A DNA stretch of 53,560 nucleotides, counting the filler, from Squatina squatina (lineage: Eukaryota): the NCBI GenBank assembly GCA_031763465.1. It is 3 parts of 3 records of this genome, joined end to end, with 100 filler letters (N's around TTAATTAATTAA, not from the genome) between each part and the next. Parts side by side here need not be neighbours in the genome. Positions count along the whole stretch, not along the records: positions 18,712 to 39,607 come from JARFOE010000056.1; 2 more parts are not named here. One strand, given 5' to 3'. The notes under the pieces are model-generated. The model did not search any database and was not told the DNA's origin. It saw only the letters and a program-made list of their open reading frames with translations. Every line of letters starts with the position of its first letter. Positions within the stretch are counted from its first letter, which is position 1. Positions 19,152 to 28,520 of the stretch are shown here, piece after piece. The translations under genes were made by a program, and so were the position numbers.

Positions 19152-20035
19152 CTGTAATTTTCCAAATATAATACACCCCCAAATATAATATTCACTCCGA
19201 TTTTCATGAACAAAATCAAATTTGCCTTATCACCGTGTAGAATACGCACCTAGACTTTTGCAGTAGATACGGCAGGCTTCTTCATTTTAATTGTTACAAT
19301 GACAGCGAAAATGAGCAAGTTACATTGCAGTCTTCAAACTTAAGGTGCTAGACGTTGCTGAAACCATGGTAACAAAGCGGCAGCAGGGGAATTCGATGTT
19401 AACGAGACAAATGTTCAACTTCGGCGAAACTCAAAGGACAAGCTAAGCAAGCCAAGACTTCTGGACGTAGAAGGAATGTTCAGCACCCACAGCTCGAGCA
19501 ACAACTTCTGGAATATATTCACCAACATTGAGCAAGGAGATGCGCAGTCAGCACTGTAGAAATTCATTTGAAAGCCCTTTGTATCACAAATGGTTTGGAT
19601 CCCAATAGCACCTTTAAAGCATCCCCAAAATGGTGCTACCTCTTCATGCAAAGGCTTGACATATCCATAAGTCGTCACACTTCAATCGCGCAATGCATGC
19701 CTGACGATTTTGAAGACAAGCTATGTGAGTACCAACGTTATATCATAAGGCTGTGAAAGCAACATCATTATAGTGCCTCTCACTGCCAATGCGGATCAGA
19801 CACCTCTCATGTTTTTCATTCCGTTCAGTCAAACTATGGCTATCAAAGGAGAATAATCGATCACCTTAAGATCAACTGGCAACGAAAAGAATCATTTCAC
19901 AGCCATGCTCGGGGCATATGAAGATGGGACAAAGATTCCGTCATATGTTATCTTCACATAAAAAATGCTCCCAAAGAATGTTAGTTGGTCACAAGATGTG
20001 ATTGTCTGTGCACATGAAAAAGGTTGGATGGATGA
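19152..20035 (+). mobile_element. pogo-family (POGK-like) DNA transposon, copy 1: left end and decayed transposase
   Basis: TA|ctgtaattttcc candidate left end; Brinker-type DBD remnant (HGNKAAAGEFDVNETNV), CENP-B-like HTH (FKASPKWCYLFMQR), NADQTPL and HEKGWMD; stops and frameshifts. Confidence 0.8.
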
Positions 20036-20135: not shown

Positions 20136-21296
20136 TGGGAATTCGATGTTAATGAGGCAAACGTTCGACTTTGGCTAAACTCAATGAATGAGCTAAAGTC
20201 CCAAAGCAAGAAAGCCAAGGCTCCTGGACATAGAAGGAAGGCTCAGCACCCACAGCTCAAGCAACAACTTTTGGAATATATTCACCAACGGCGAACAAGT
20301 GGATGCAGTCAGCACTGTGGAAATTTGTTTGAAAGCCCTTTATATCATGAAAGTTTTGGATCCCAATAGCACCTTTAAAGTATCTCCAAAATGGTGCTAC
20401 CTCTTCATGCAAAGGTATGACATATCCATACATTATTGCACTTCAATTGCATAATGCATGCCTGATGATTTTGAAGGCAAGCTATGTGAGTACCAGCATT
20501 ACAGCATAAGGCTGCGAAAGCAACACCACTATAGCACCTCTCATATTGCCAACGTGGATCAGACACTTCTCACGTTTGACATTCTGTTCAGTCAAACTGT
20601 GGCTATCAAAGGAGAACAATTGATCGCCTTAAGATCAACTGACAATGAAAAGAATTGTTTCACCGTCATGCTTGGGGCATATGGAGATGACACAAAGATG
20701 CTGCCATATATTATCTTCAAACAAAAAACTCTCCCAAAGAATGTTCAATGGCTACAAGGTGTGAAAAAAGTTGGATGGATGAAGGTTTGACCAAAGACTA
20801 GTTACGTAGCGTGTGGTGCAAAGGCCCCTCTCGGGAAAGTCCCATTCTAGTCCTCAATGCTTTTAGGTGTCATGGAATGTCATGCATCAAGGATAGCCTA
20901 AATGATAATCGCACAGATCTTGTCATCATTCCTGGGGGCATGACAGGCCAGTTGCAAGCGATGGATGTCAGCTGCAACTGACCATTTAAGCAGCAGATAC
21001 GTCAAAAGTGGAACGAGTGGCTGTACTCTGGAGCACATGCGTTTACACTGTCAGGCAACCAGAGGAAACCTGACCTTTTGCTCATTGCCCGATGGATCAA
21101 AGAAGCCTGGGATGTAAATGATCCGTTCCTGATCCAGCGTGACTTTAAGAAGTGCTGCCTCACAAACGCCATGGATGGTTCAGGAGACAACATCCTCTGG
21201 GANNNNNNNNNNTATAGTGATGACGAGAGAGATGATGAGACAGTAGAAGAGATGCGCAAACTATTCAAGGACAGCAATTCAGACATAGAATTTTAA
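20136..21296 (+). mobile_element. pogo-family (POGK-like) transposase pseudogene, copy 2
   Basis: EFDVNEANVRLW..., IANVDQTLL, LVLNAFRCH (second catalytic D appears as N), IPGGMTGQLQAMDVSCN, WIKEAW..FKKCCLTNAMDGSGD; several stops. Confidence 0.85.
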
Positions 21297-21643: not shown

Positions 21644-21780
21644 AGGATTTGGACCTACGTACAAACATCAGGAGACGATCACCTACAGGTGTAATGAAGG
21701 TTATGAAATGGTTGGCAACAATGTCATTGAATGTAGTGAGAACAACACATTCGTGCCACCACCACCTACCTGCAGACCAC
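21644..21780 (+). CDS. Sushi/CCP exon copy 1 (5' end in gap), CD46 CCP4-like, RCA-family gene
   Basis: GFGPTYKHQETITYRCNEGYEMVGNNVIECSENNTFVPPPPTCRP, donor CAC|gtgagt (phase 1). Confidence 0.85.
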
Positions 21781-22939
21781 GTGAGTAAATATTCCTTAAA
21801 CTTGAGAATGGAATCAAAAGATGTGGGTGGACCTTTTTGCAATCTGTTGCAACTACGTTAATGCTGGAATGTTGGGATTGACTTTTCAGTTTGCACTGGC
21901 ACATGGATTTCTTTTTCTTACAGTTGTAAAAAAATGAAATCGGAATAATTTCTGTAAACCAATGAGCAGAGGAATCTTAATGATTTAATGCCATACATTG
22001 CCCACCCTTTAATCATGTCGTAATCTTGTGGTCACAAACACATATACTGCAGATATGACTCCAGCTATTGGAGGGTTTTCCATTGACCCCCATTGGCAGT
22101 ATGTTTTTACTTTGGTGTGTAATCTGCGTATGGTTCCTAATCCATGTTGTCAAAGCAATTATATAGAATACATTGCTAAGACAAATGAAACATTTTGTTT
22201 TCACGACTATTATTGTAGAATTATTATGCTGCATGATCTTGTTGATTTAACCTCTGGGTTAATTCTCTGAAAACAACTGAAACTATTCTAACATTAAAAT
22301 TTAATAAATAGGAGATAAATAACACACACAAATTCTAAAATTTAAAAAAAAAAAATCTTTTAAAATGTTTAAAAATATACTTACCTTCCTGGAATGGTTT
22401 TAAAGTAATGTCCCATCAATTTTTTGATTTAAAATTTCTTACAGTGGTAAAACCAAGCAGATACGTTGGGTTTTACCATGCGTAAAAAAATTTGAAGAGC
22501 TCCCCAGTGAAAGTTTTGCAAAAATCAGCGTTGTTTCTGGACAGATCGCAAATGCCAGTTATGCGGGCTTTCAATGAACAGTCCCATAACCGGCTTTTGC
22601 GTGTCTCCCCGGGTGCATGGGAACATCGCAATTTCAGGCCCATTATTCTGGAGGATTTTGTAATTGCTGTAGAAGATGGTCTTTTTTTCCCCTTGACTTA
22701 ATTCTCATGTAATGGAGTTCTGAACTTGTTTTCAGTTTATATTTGCCCTTCCACCCACCCCACCTCCACCAGGCATAGTTCTCAAGGAGATTTACTCATT
22801 GGTTTTTAATGATGCCTTAACCAGCATAACAATATTTCGATGAAGTGGGAAGATGAGTAGTGAGCCAAATGGACTTTCAATCAGTATCATAAGTACAATT
22901 AATTGTTTAATGGAGATAAAAACGTTGCTCTTTTGTCAG

Positions 22940-23125
22940 TTGTTGGATGTCAATCTCCTGAACTGCTTGCAAATGGTCGCATAGTCACAGGATTTGGACC
23001 TACATACAAACATCAGGAGACGATCACCTTCAGCTGCAATGAAGGCTATGAAATGGTTGGCAACAGTGTCATTGAGTGTAGTGAGAACAACACATTCGTG
23101 CCACCACCACCTACCTGCAGACCAC
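22940..23125 (+). CDS. Sushi/CCP exon copy 2 (complete, 186 nt, phase 1-1), CD46 CCP4-like
   Basis: Acceptor ctcttttgtcag, donor CAC|gtgagt; VVGCQSPELLANGRIVTGFGPTYKHQETITFSCNEGYEMVGNSVIECSENNTFVPPPPTCRP. Four Cys and the VV.C..P...NG...GFG pattern follow CD46 CCP4. Confidence 0.92.
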
Positions 23126-23149
23126 GTGAGTAAACGTTTCTTAATCTTT

Positions 23150-23455
23150 TTTCTTATTCGTTCATCGGATGTGGGCGTCACTGGCAAGGCCAGCATTTAT
23201 TGCCCATCCCTAATTGCCCTTGAGAAGCCTTTTTAAACCGATGCAGTCTGTGTGGGGAAGGTACTCCCACAATGCTGTTAGGGAGGGAGTTCCACGATTT
23301 TGACCCAGTGACAATGATGGAATAATGACACATTTCCAAGTCAGGATGGTGTGTGACTTGGAGGAAAACATGGAGGTGATGGCTTTCCCGCACGCCTGCT
23401 GCCCTTGTCTTTCTAAGTGGTCGAGGTTGTGGGTTTGGGAGGTGTTGTCAAAGAA
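23150..23455 (-). mobile_element. Non-LTR retrotransposon 3' end inserted in the intron after CCP exon 2
   Basis: Minus reading QVTHHPDLEMCHYSIIVTGSKSWNSLP; absent from the paralogous intron after exon 1. Confidence 0.75.
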
Positions 23456-23729
23456 ATTTGAGAATGGAATCAAAAGATGTCGGGGGAACATTTTGCAAAT
23501 CTGTTGAAACTATGTAAATAGCTGGATGTTGGGATTGATTTTTCCCATTTGGTTTTGGCACATTGATATTTTTTCTTGCTGCTCTTAAAGAAAAATAGAA
23601 AACTTTTCAGGGAGCCAATGAGCAGAGGAAGCTTAATGCTTTAATGCCATTCATTTGTTCCTTTTATCATGTCTTAATTTTGTGGTCACTACCACACATA
23701 CAGGGCTGAGTTCCAGATTTCCACTACCA

Positions 23730-24260
23730 TTTCTGTGGAAACAGTGTTTTCCGATTTCACTCCTAAATGACTGAGCTCTAATTTTATGATGATGTGCCCA
23801 TTGTTTAGATTCCTCCACCGTGGTAAATCATTTCACTGGAGCTACCGTACTGAATCCCTAAATCATTTGAAATACCTCAATTAGGTCACCCCTCAACCTT
23901 CTGAACTTAAGGGAATTGAGGCAACATTTTTTGCAACCTATTTTCTGAATTTAATGCTTTAGGCACTGGTGTCATTTTGGTGAATCTGCACCATATTCCT
24001 TCCGAGACCAACATCTCTTTACAGAGATTCGGCACCTAAAACTGAATGCAGTACTCCAGCTGAGGGTTGACCAAGGATCTGTAAAATTGAAACATCACTT
24101 CCTCACTTTTAAATTCCAACACTCTTGAAATAAAGACCAATGTTTCATGAACCTTTTGGGATTACTTTTTGTACCTGCGCACTCGGTTTTAGTGATTTAT
24201 GTACTTGGACACCTTAATCCCTTTGCTCCTTGACAGCTCCAGGCCTCTCACCATTAAGAA
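23730..24260 (-). mobile_element. Old CR1-like LINE fragment
   Basis: Degenerate CR1 3' ORF2 motifs (gcagtactccagctgagggttgaccaagg; gtcacccctcaaccttct). Confidence 0.55.
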
Positions 24261-24340
24261 AGTAGGGGGAAACCTGACATTGGCATGAGAGGAAACCATT
24301 ATTCAATGTTTTGATTCAACATTGCATGTTAAAGGAACAT

Positions 24341-25020
24341 AGGTGCCGAAATTGCGCTGTGTCTTCTTTGGGGGGCAGTAAAACTCCGGGGCCGGGTCTT
24401 TTAGCACATGGCCCGGGTGTCCCGCCCCGGAAATGAAGCAGAGCGCTGTCTCCGGAGTTCCGCTTTATTTGGGTGCGGTGTCAGCGCGCTGTTAAAGCAG
24501 AGAGCTGCTGCGCACTCTGCATCGGCCGCTGATGGTCACCACCGGGCCACCAGGGCACGGTGTGACCGGGGCCAGCAGCCCAGGAGCAAGTCGGCGTGCC
24601 AGGCTAAAGGATGGCAGCCCGTTTGACGCAAGGGCTGCCATCGGTTCGCCGACCCAAGAGTCGGCCGACAAATAAAGATGGCAGCTTGGGATACTAAAGG
24701 CCTCCCCTTTTACTGGGTGCCCCGGGAGCCGATGCGCACCGGCTTTGCGATCCGCAAAGCTGGCGTTGTCATCGCCTCCTGTTGGCCTTGGGTCCAGCAG
24801 GGCAATTTCCCCTGCAAGGCACAAAGGAGTCGGCGTGCACGGCGATGACATCATTGCTGGTTGTGCACTGGCCCGGGGTGTGGCGCTAATGGCCCAGCAC
24901 CTCCAGGACCTCCCGGACAATTTCCTGGGAGAGGCCAGCAGCCCCACCTCGTCCCGGGCAAAAATTAATTAACGCCCCATTCGTGCCCCCCGGAGGCGCT
25001 AACGGGGCCAAAACTCATCA
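24341..25020. mobile_element. GC-rich non-autonomous Harbinger-type element
   Basis: Begins aggtgccgaaattgcg; shares gccccattcg.gcccc..gaggc subterminal motif with 16430-17096. Confidence 0.55.
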
Positions 25021-25599
25021 AATTAATCCTGCTCCTTCTGCACACTTTATTGCTAATGGTAATGTTGGAGCAAGGAGCAGAGTTTTGGTGGGTGGTGGGA
25101 AGTTCAGGAGGTGGTAGTTTCAGTGAATTTTTAGCTGACAGGAAGTGGTAGTTTTGTGAAGTTGAGCTGTGGGAGATCTAGGAGTTGGAGGTGGCTTGTA
25201 AAGGAAATCTGCAAGTGGCAGTGAGTGGAGAGTGGTGGTAAGGAGAGGGTGGGAGGTGCCAGGCAAACGAAAAGTGGGAATAGTATGGATGGAGGAATAA
25301 GGAAGAACAGGAGTAAGCAAGAAAACAGGCAGGATAAGCAGGCTGTGGAAAAGATGACTCAGAAAAGGGCGATATTGTTGTGCGGTCTGTTGGTTGGTGC
25401 AAGGCACGGAGCGACGAAGAGAAGGGGAGCAGTGGAAGACTAAGTGGGGCAATGGAAGATCAGGAGAGGCAATGAAGAGAATTGGGCTCCAGGTTTCATT
25501 AATGAGGGATGGGCTTTGATGGCCACTTAATTATTTTTGCCAATTTCTCAGCAGTGGGAAACTGACCGTGTATTTTCTGTTGGTCATCACCCTGTCTTC

Positions 25600-25633
25600 C
25601 CCCACACCCCACACCCCACACCCCACACCCCAC
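25600..25633. repeat. (CCCCACA)n simple repeat
   Basis: About five direct copies. Confidence 0.85.
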
Positions 25634-26166
25634 TCCGCTTCTCACCTTTTCTCCACTGGTCCCACTACCTCTGCCACCTTCTCTGCCCCTCACTGTGCAA
25701 CCCTAATATCTTGCATCTCCCCCCGACCTTGGTATCATCTCATACTCACTCTCCATCACCTGCACTAAACTTTAAAGAAAATTAATATTTTTTTTAAATG
25801 TTGTCCTCCACTCTCCTCAAGTTCTACTGACAAATTATCGAGCCACATAAGGAGATACTAGGACAGGTGATCAACAGTTTGATTTTAATGACCGTCTTTA
25901 AGGATGATTGAGAGAGATCAGGTTTTGGGAGGGAATTTCAGAGCTTGGGACCTATAATTCAAAATATGATAAACATTTGGAACAATTTAGTTGATAATGC
26001 AATGAAGTCAGATCTTTAATCATTGGATTTTTTAATGGTGCCTTAAAAAGCATAATGTTATTTTGATCATGATGGGAACAGATGCAGTGGGCCAGATAGA
26101 CTTTCATTCAGCATCATAAGTACAGTTACTTTCTTCGTGGAGACTAAAACATTGCTCTCTTGCCAG

Positions 26167-26292
26167 TTGTTGGATGTCAATCTCCTGAATTGCTCACAAA
26201 TGGTCACATAGTCACAGGATTTGGACCTACGTACAAACATCAGGAGACGATCACCTACAGGTGTAATGAAGGTTATGAAATGGTTGGCAACA
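26167..26292 (+). CDS. Sushi/CCP exon copy 3 (3' end in gap), CD46 CCP4-like
   Basis: Acceptor ctctcttgccag; VVGCQSPELLTNGHIVTGFGPTYKHQETITYRCNEGYEMVGN; last 77 nt identical to the first 77 nt of copy 1. Confidence 0.88.
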
Positions 26293-27139: not shown

Positions 27140-28520
27140 GTTAAAATTCTGAACTGTCTCTATCCTTGATGAAAACTTCTGGCAATGCCCTGTTTCAGTG
27201 AATCCCCTCTCAGAGCAAATGAACTGAAGTATCTTCCTTCTCTGTTCTATTGCAAGACAAATTTGATGCAGTTCCTACTAATTTAGTTGATCTGGGATTA
27301 GAGTTTCCTTTCCAGATTTTCTATCTCCTTTATTATACTTCTGACAATTGCACTTCAATGAAACCTCAATGCTAATTAAGTTTTCCCTTTTTGATTCCAG
27401 TGAAGCAGATGTTTCTCTCTTTTTAAAAAAAAAAGTCCACTGTGAGTTGTGTTTTAGATTTGAACACTTAGTTAGTTTAAAAAAGACACAATGATTCTGA
27501 TTGTTTTTAAATGTATTTGTACCATACTGGTCATAGTTGTGTGTGCAAGGAAATGAATCGGTCCACGATTGAGGTATTACTTTTATTTGGACTTCTATGT
27601 GAATTACTGATTGGCGTCCTGTTGAGAAGATTACTTTTTAATAACAGCAACGTGGGATGTTTGATGAGACCAAGATTGATATTGGCTTTTTTTCAATTTT
27701 GCATTTGATATGGTACCTGTGTAGCTTCATGAAAAATTTGCTTACCAAACATTGAAACCTTAAGCGAATCTAAAGGAAAAGCCTATTCTCAAATTTCAAA
27801 CTAAACCCTTTTTTTTGTTACTTTCCTGTGCAGTGGCCAGTCTGAAGGGAGACTGCTTTCTTTGCCATATTTGGGATTGGTGCTGAAACATGACATTTCG
27901 ATGCTTATTCGTTGCTTCCTGCACCTCCTTATTGCATTGAGACATTTTTAAAATTCAATGCATGGGTGTATTTCACGATGAACAACTTGAGATAAGGTCA
28001 CTCAGTATAAAAAGAATTTTGTTTCACTGAAAAGTTAATTGTGCTTTTAAAACATCTGATTTTAAATTGAATCAAACAGTTTTTATCCTGTAGTGTTGTT
28101 TTGCTGATTTTGCGTCACTGTTGAGGTTCTAAGTATCAGCTTGATTTGATCAGTCTTTGTACGGTAGGTACTTGTTGTGTTAGAATCCTGAAGATGATCC
28201 ATTCCTTTTAAATGTCTGCTCTTGTGTCTGAAATATTTTCTGACAGTAAATGTGATGAAAGTATTTATTTTTCCGGCATCCTGGGCCAGTTACATATTTT
28301 AAAATTTAGAGCTATATTCCATTTCCACGATCAAAGTTATAATACAATGCCATCAAAAGTAACAATATCACATTCACGAAATAGCATATCCTCTTGTGAA
28401 AACTGTACCTTCACTATGCTCTGCCACCACAGCTATTATGCAGCAGCTTGCTATGTGAAGTAAAAGACAAATTATCAGAAATAAATTCAATGGCAAGTTA
28501 TGCAATTGAATTCAATAAAT
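27140..28520 (+). other. Probable terminal exon and AT-rich 3' UTR of the CCP gene
   Basis: Strong acceptor tttctatattttcccctccacag; all three frames stop within 10 codons; repeat-free AT-rich run to AATAAA at 28480 and 28514. Confidence 0.5.

Follow-up and report, generated by a model that had tools for sequence, protein, structure and literature searches.

Tandem CD46 CCP4-type sushi exons in Squatina squatina, a probable part of the stalk of a long membrane regulator of complement

The window analysed here is a stretch of 53,560 nucleotides (nt), filler included, from the genome of Squatina squatina (assembly GCA_031763465.1), and our subject is the contig at positions 21644..26292, which carries three copies of a sushi exon on its + strand. 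Each encodes a complement control protein (CCP) module, or part of one, of the kind that forms the fourth module (CCP4) of CD46, which belongs to the family of regulators of complement activation (RCA). The contig is flanked on both sides by gaps of 100 N and corresponds to C56:1,623,502-1,628,150 (C56 is scaffold JARFOE010000056.1) in a fragmented assembly of 1.5 Gb in 1.15 million pieces, whose encoded proteins have their nearest matches among shark sequences. Its features are as follows.

21644..21780, + strand: copy 1, the 3' part (codons 17-61) of a CCP4-type sushi exon, with its 5' end lost to the assembly gap and a GT donor at 21781.
21644..21720, + strand: repeat-node 77-mer, which recurs without change at 26216-26292 and as the first bases of contig C447548.
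21781..22939, + strand: intron after copy 1, 1159 nt, its start homologous to that of the intron after copy B and its end to that of the intron before copy 3.
~22280-22630: high-copy repeat within the 1159-nt intron.
22940..23125, + strand: copy B, a complete 186-nt, phase 1-1 sushi exon with AG before it and GT after it, an open frame, four Cys and an N-N-T sequon.
23126..26166, + strand: intron after copy B, 3041 nt, with several interspersed repeats.
~23149..23453, strand not assigned: high-copy interspersed repeat of ~300 nt just past the copy B donor, with none after copy 1.
26167..26292, + strand: copy 3, the 5' part (codons 1-41) of a CCP4-type sushi exon, preceded by an AG acceptor and with its 3' end lost to the assembly gap.

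An earlier note on this DNA had described at least three similar sushi exons, the complete one of 186 nt in phase 1-1, each duplicated together with its flanking intron. Both statements held, with copies starting at 21644, 22940 and 26167 and two pairs of segments aligned by BLAST: 22791-23065 with 26015-26292 at 84.5% identity (intron and exon), and 21798-22047 with 23454-23701 at 78.7% (intron), the latter similarity being split by the ~300-nt insert at ~23149-23453. An exact 20-mer repeat occurred in 0 of 200 shuffled versions of the contig. Neither intron (1159 or 3041 nt) contained a further CCP exon, and a genome search with the 1159-nt intron, in which the best 40 of 4532 candidates were scored, was dominated by repeats. 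Joining any donor of the array to any acceptor yields a Leu codon at the junction of the exon peptides, and the exon copies therefore stack in frame.

The copy B peptide has the four Cys and the ~60-amino-acid (aa) length of a sushi module, scored 50.1 bits against the Pfam Sushi family (cut-off 20.7), and carries Phe52 in place of the conserved sushi Trp. When PDB sequences were searched, CR2, CR1 and factor H came first on a score summed over many domains, and the best human CD46 stretch was residues 194-249, its fourth module. A structure model of copy B was all-beta with a predicted local distance difference test (pLDDT) value of 89 (12-row alignment; two of five models good), and in a fold search with this model bovine and human CD46 occupied ranks 1-3, with template modelling (TM) scores of 0.89-0.90 and 35-44% identity. 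In CD46 the glycan of SCR4 (short consensus repeat 4) is at Asn239, and a motif at 243-249 ends in Cys249 (PMC2947992; this and the other papers are cited from excerpts of their texts). Counting the exon register back from Cys249 places Asn49 at CD46 Asn239 and Phe52 at the position of the sushi Trp. These results bear out what had been claimed beforehand of an RCA-family protein with the CD46 CCP4 pattern, including the position of the sequon. The Phe, pointed out beforehand in both copies where it is visible, is no mark of this array and proved to be general: searches for relatives, all of them predicted public gene models, returned elasmobranch proteins built of four module types, and in 15 of these proteins 70 of the 71 strong type-4 modules have Phe at the Trp position and one has Tyr, with the Trp kept in 126 of 126 elasmobranch modules of types 1-3. 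Phe52 is predicted to leave the sushi fold unaffected.

Copy B was identical to the other copies at 175 of 186 exon bases (94%) and at 336 of 409 intron columns (82%; exon versus intron, Fisher p=7e-5), in line with the note's remark that the exons look more alike than their introns. The exon and intron windows of this comparison were offset by one base, the swapped bases being identical. Differences were found at 6 of 43 synonymous and 5 of 140 non-synonymous sites (p=0.02), giving a ratio of non-synonymous to synonymous change (dN/dS) of 0.20-0.29, and synonymous divergence (6/43, 14%) did not differ from intron divergence (73/409, 18%; p=0.67). Among seven full-length type-4 exons of the Squatina genome, all 21 pairwise dN/dS values lay between 0.22 and 0.55. 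Because synonymous divergence equals intron divergence and non-synonymous divergence is lower, the pair formed by copy B and the other copies (A) is, as judged from these sequences, an old duplication under purifying selection. Gene conversion was considered as a reason for the exons of A and B being more alike than the introns and was set aside as unneeded, given that synonymous and intron divergence are about equal (p=0.67). The shared 77-mer may nevertheless reflect gene conversion.

The first and last 77 bases of the contig are identical, and contig C447548 opens with the same 77-mer, past which its exon half and intron drop to 80-85% identity. The only end overlaps among 54 RCA-bearing segments were those of the 77-mer, and a genome search for another contig entering the 77-mer found none. 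We infer that the identical ends represent a repeat node of a de Bruijn graph. Since the contig ends are shared at this node, the partial copies 1 and 3 are contig ends, and the copy count is not readable from the assembly. A linear path would run from an entry through the node, the window contig (one or more times), the node again and then C447548, which would give at least three exons, and the count would be above three if a 4572-nt two-exon unit is collapsed. In a relative that is ~95% identical at YOD1, pieces matching the array introns had contig depths of 37-84 compared to 12-17 for YOD1; this would be a hint that several copies of a unit are collapsed in that relative, although depth is not copy number and was not used as evidence. 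Short-read assemblies collapse CCP arrays of this kind.

Elasmobranch models of the module family found in the window reach up to 90% identity, and CD46 CCP1-4 can be aligned, in register, with modules 1-2-3-4 of a catshark protein. The closest array, Pristiophorus model P0001, has 18 complete copies of the window subtype (18+), which are 93-98% alike and all carry the N-glycan sequon, a feature that varies among type-4 modules. Model P0010 (XP_067863591-3, probably Heptranchias) reads 1-2-3-(4)x10-3-2-4-1-2 followed by a transmembrane segment; its array belongs to a sister subtype, and its predicted isoforms have 10, 9 and 8 array modules. Chiloscyllium P0166 (XP_072419238) reads 1-2-3-4-4-3-3-3-(2)x46 before a transmembrane segment with a tail like that of P0010, and P0007 also has a run of type-2 modules. 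Thus the expanded module is type 4 in P0001, P0010, P0032 and P0087 and type 2 in P0007 and P0166. A second, shorter membrane gene, 1-2-3-(4)n plus a transmembrane segment, occurs in Pristiophorus, Mustelus and Narcine (P0032 and P0109 are of this type), and models from Mustelus and Cetorhinus have predicted isoforms that differ in 60-aa module steps. Near-identical modules alternate in P0010 and P0032, which suggests that two-exon units were duplicated in relatives too. A single-sequence structure model of P0032, a natural array protein, failed (pLDDT 33). The teleost model Salminus P0062 has 12 modules, with isoforms lacking one, and matches the module profiles weakly. The earlier note had proposed a lineage-specific, stackable extension: the expandable array is borne out by the 18+, 10 and 46 copies in relatives, and the restriction to one lineage is not, as the arrangement is widespread in elasmobranchs and is also seen in a teleost model. 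The note had also raised copy-number variation and alternative splicing as possibilities, and for splicing the predicted isoforms of other sharks give a pointer. Single-module RCA arrays are already latent in public gene models, where automatic labels call them SVEP1-like, CR2-like, C4BP-like or ZP3R-like (UPI00398EAF8C and XP_038675537 are among them).

Several of these models have features of their own. P0166 comprises 54 CCPs, 46 of them of one type in a higher-order repeat of ~12 modules, and exceeds human CR1 in length. Heterodontus P0004, a (1-2-3-4)x3 model, consists of three near-perfect 1-2-3-4 repeats and then a short hydrophobic terminus resembling a glycosylphosphatidylinositol signal, which would combine CR1-like repeats with a CD55-like anchor. 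Secreted shark RCA models (P0085, P0149/P0160 and P0157/P0161-3, from Heptranchias, Cetorhinus and Mustelus) end in a helical tail of ~60 aa that has no Pfam match and is perhaps a C4BP-like oligomerisation piece. In Narcine P0087, ~410 residues of retroelement-like sequence precede an otherwise ordinary RCA signal peptide, a fusion that is probably due to misannotation.

Two trees were built from 60 columns each, the long-branch exons L054 and L056 being excluded from the second. The window exons fell into one clade with the entire P0001 array and with single-copy modules of long proteins from four genera, supported at 94/95 in the first tree and by a Shimodaira-Hasegawa-like approximate likelihood ratio of 96 in the second. 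The Narcine and P0001 arrays formed species-specific clades (support 100 and 97), which fit either independent expansion or homogenisation, and the data do not separate the two. As to the host gene, the exons group with the subtype of a long, CR1-sized RCA protein, and a separate short membrane gene exists, so that a long CR1-sized RCA protein is the more likely host than a CD46 orthologue.

Other parts of the family are scattered through the Squatina genome; all exon counts are lower bounds, with the best 41 of 119 candidates scored, and the SVEP1-like multi-CCP exons L042, L045, L053 and L057 were left out of the module counts. Scattered contigs carry at least 4 type-1 exons, at least 9 type-3 exons and split type-2 exons, and at least 13 further contigs carry type-4 exons or pieces of them; one exon of the genome (L007) is 90% identical to the P0032 modules. 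On three contigs, all unlinked to the window contig, the two halves of type 2 are encoded by separate exons that follow each other in the right order. The exon structure expected of an RCA gene, one module per phase 1-1 exon with a split second module, was thus found, with type 2 on unlinked contigs; the split second-module exon is a hallmark of C4BPA (PMC2118859). A transmembrane exon on one scattered contig matches the tail of P0002 at 66% and resembles the tail of the long gene. For an architecture of a 1-2-3-4 head, an array and a transmembrane tail, the genome thus holds the matching subtype and a transmembrane exon, on unlinked contigs. Four type-3 exons that are nearly identical to one another, each on a small contig of its own (L038, L039, L052 and L058 on C65616, C360379, C1146253 and C644982), suggest a second collapsed array or alleles.

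We consider it probable that the three or more CD46-CCP4-type exons belong to a long membrane RCA protein, in which they would form part of a glycosylated spacer that carries a regulatory head of four modules. The exon copies would be joined in frame in one transcript of a gene of the long type, with a 1-2-3-4 head, a variable stalk and a transmembrane tail. The array would have grown as unequal crossing-over multiplied units of one or two exons, and such growth would be tolerated because every exon is phase 1-1. The N-terminal 1-2-3-4 unit would carry out regulation, and the copies of the repeated module, every one bearing a site for an N-glycan, would serve as the stalk. This stalk would set reach and contribute no further sites of cofactor activity, since known RCA proteins depend for regulation on an ordered set of modules 1-3; it is to these three that the regulatory motifs have been mapped, the fourth being supportive (PMC6683126). 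The expansion of module 4 in some lineages and of module 2 in others accords with selection acting on length and not on a single binding surface.

Several observations weigh against this interpretation. The joining of the copies into one mRNA rests on genomic sequence, and the most extensive C3b-binding site of CD46 lies in SCR4 (PMC2947992). P0001 has no signal peptide, head or anchor, and its end reads through a splice donor. The trees have 60 columns, the bootstrap of the first was unsettled, and the closest whole-module matches of the partial copy 1 are of the sister subtype. The scaffold is gappy (N makes up 49% of the 200 kb examined), the contig with the three copies stands isolated in it, and family members also lie on scaffolds C80 and C1, which makes placement imperfect. 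No type 1-3 or transmembrane exon was found on the examined stretch of C56, and the assembled part between the upstream PFKFB gene and the array did not yield the last PFKFB exons. There is also a type-4 exon elsewhere (L009, C864297:338-453) that has an in-frame stop and is cut by unrelated sequence, a pseudo-exon.

The stacked modules might instead act in binding, as multivalent sites for C3b/C4b or a decoy for pathogens, rather than as a spacer. CD46 SCR4 has an extensive C3b epitope (PMC2947992) and also binds microbial ligands (PMC5670209), CR1 length alleles add binding sites (PMC3265835), and the exons are under purifying selection. This explanation is nonetheless unlikely, as module 2 was expanded instead in other lineages, no excess of amino-acid change is seen in the 21 pairwise dN/dS values of 0.22-0.55, and copy B, with 6 Glu against 3 Lys/Arg, has an acidic net charge, only 1 of the 7 basic SCR4 positions within the exon (PMC2947992) being still basic in a register that is itself inferred. 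We give little credence to the copies being alternative cassettes or mutually exclusive exons, with one or few used per transcript and a short protein as the product. Phase 1-1 allows any subset of exons, and predicted isoforms of other sharks do differ by whole modules (10, 9 and 8 in XP_067863591-3; 60-aa steps in Mustelus and Cetorhinus). However, the shortest isoform of XP_067863591-3 still has 8 tandem copies, and such isoform calls can arise from misplaced reads among near-identical exons.

Less probable again is an array that is a decaying or orphan duplicate, made of pseudo-exons or a headless fragment, or whose copies lie in separate paralogous genes. P0001 is headless and anchorless, broken relatives exist (L009 and L012), the genome has several RCA paralogues, and the contig has no sequence link to a head or anchor exon. 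Against this, open frames and canonical splice sites have been kept despite 18% intron divergence, dN/dS is about 0.2, and the copies are separated by 1.2 and 3.0 kb that contain no other CCP exon, a spacing too tight for separate genes. Finally, the identical 77-nt contig ends might mean that an assembly artefact shows a single exon twice, as copy 1 and as copy 3, which would leave two exons only. This is barely credible: the node has two exits (the window contig and C447548) and one visible entry, the linear path gives at least three exons, and were copies 1 and 3 the same, the two-exon unit would be repeated and collapsed and the count would rise.

The glycosylated-stalk interpretation can be set beside known proteins. 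Intragenic CCP duplication is textbook knowledge for RCA proteins, and the principle is not new; what differs is the single-module unit and its repetition, with the expansion of different modules of one four-module set in separate elasmobranch lineages. CD46 (MCP) shares the CCP4 register, sequon and fold and the chromosomal neighbourhood, and the shark head aligns with its CCP1-4; the shark protein differs in its repeated CCP4 and in having Phe for the sushi Trp. CD46 and tongue-sole CD46 (CsCD46) have exactly four CCPs, and CD46 also has a Ser/Thr/Pro-rich (STP) spacer (PMC5670209, PMC2947992). Among the teleost CD46-like proteins, which also include Tecrem, those in published work have four CCPs (PMC5670209). 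Instead of exactly four CCPs followed by a spacer, transmembrane segment and tail, the array has at least three CCP4-type modules in a row. CR1 (CD35) is, like the putative shark protein, a long type I membrane RCA protein derived by intragenic duplication, with repeats that collapse in short reads. In CR1, what varies is a repeat of 18 kb and seven modules that brings further C3b/C4b sites with it (PMC3265835). The shark array repeats one or two exons, all of a single module type and lacking modules 1-3. It shows none of the long homologous repeats of seven modules that start with a regulatory site, and the Heterodontus (1-2-3-4)x3 model is the closer CR1 analogue.

CR2 (CD21) and C4BP alpha carry ligand-binding N-terminal modules on further CCPs. 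They share with the shark proteins an active head on a CCP stalk, and C4BPA also shares the split second-module exon (PMC2118859). Their stalks are mixed, divergent modules, whereas each shark array repeats one module almost unchanged, and which module this is depends on the lineage. In apolipoprotein(a), likewise, tandem multiplication has affected one domain, kringle IV type-2 (KIV-2), together with its introns, and the protein varies in length as a result; there the domain is unrelated, the protein is secreted and the copies are recent and near-identical through their introns, compared to 18% divergence in the shark A/B pair.

We propose, tentatively, that these genes are the elasmobranch counterpart of CR1/CR2, with a fixed four-module head and a stalk rebuilt in each lineage from a different single CCP exon (10-46 copies); within a species, copy number and cassette splicing would adjust the length of this stalk. 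If so, this counterpart would be a candidate receptor for trapping immune complexes in the shark spleen. The models would supply concrete candidate genes for shark CR1/CR2-like receptors, masked until now by SVEP1-like, ZP3R-like and C4BP-like labels, and the lineage-specific expansions would offer a natural test of whether stalk length or site number in RCA proteins is under selection. In zebrafish, ZRC1/2 have been suggested as CR1/CR2 counterparts (PMC13572128), and in nurse shark spleen Vsig4 was the sole complement receptor among cluster-defining transcripts (PMC10529500). Nothing about membrane RCA genes of sharks was found in excerpts of PMC9207270, PMC7768046 and PMC10450919, and our literature search, with subscription journals (which hold much fish complement work) largely outside its scope, found no description of shark RCA module arrays.

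The surroundings of the array on C56 are as follows.

~40 kb further upstream than YOD1/PFKFB: a DUF4504 gene.
C56:1,595,892-1,615,098: YOD1 and PFKFB, head to head (L021-L023).
C56:1,596k, - strand: YOD1/OTU1, upstream of the array.
C56:1,600-1,615k, + strand: PFKFB exons, ending 8.4 kb before the array.
C56:1,623.5-1,628k, + strand: the exon array.

At the human RCA cluster lies PFKFB2, to which the shark PFKFB gene may correspond. The human cluster is bordered by YOD1 (PMC9235356). The YOD1/PFKFB neighbourhood, 9-27 kb upstream, is supportive of an RCA placement of the array and is not proof of it. Just upstream of the array, at 19387-20001 and 20137-20764, are two 83%-identical copies of a decayed element, presumably a DDE/pogo-type transposase-like sequence, with no Pfam match. 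Downstream, 27140-28400 has a good splice acceptor, a short frame and a long AT-rich stretch, and could be a terminal exon and 3' untranslated region of the PFKFB or the RCA gene.

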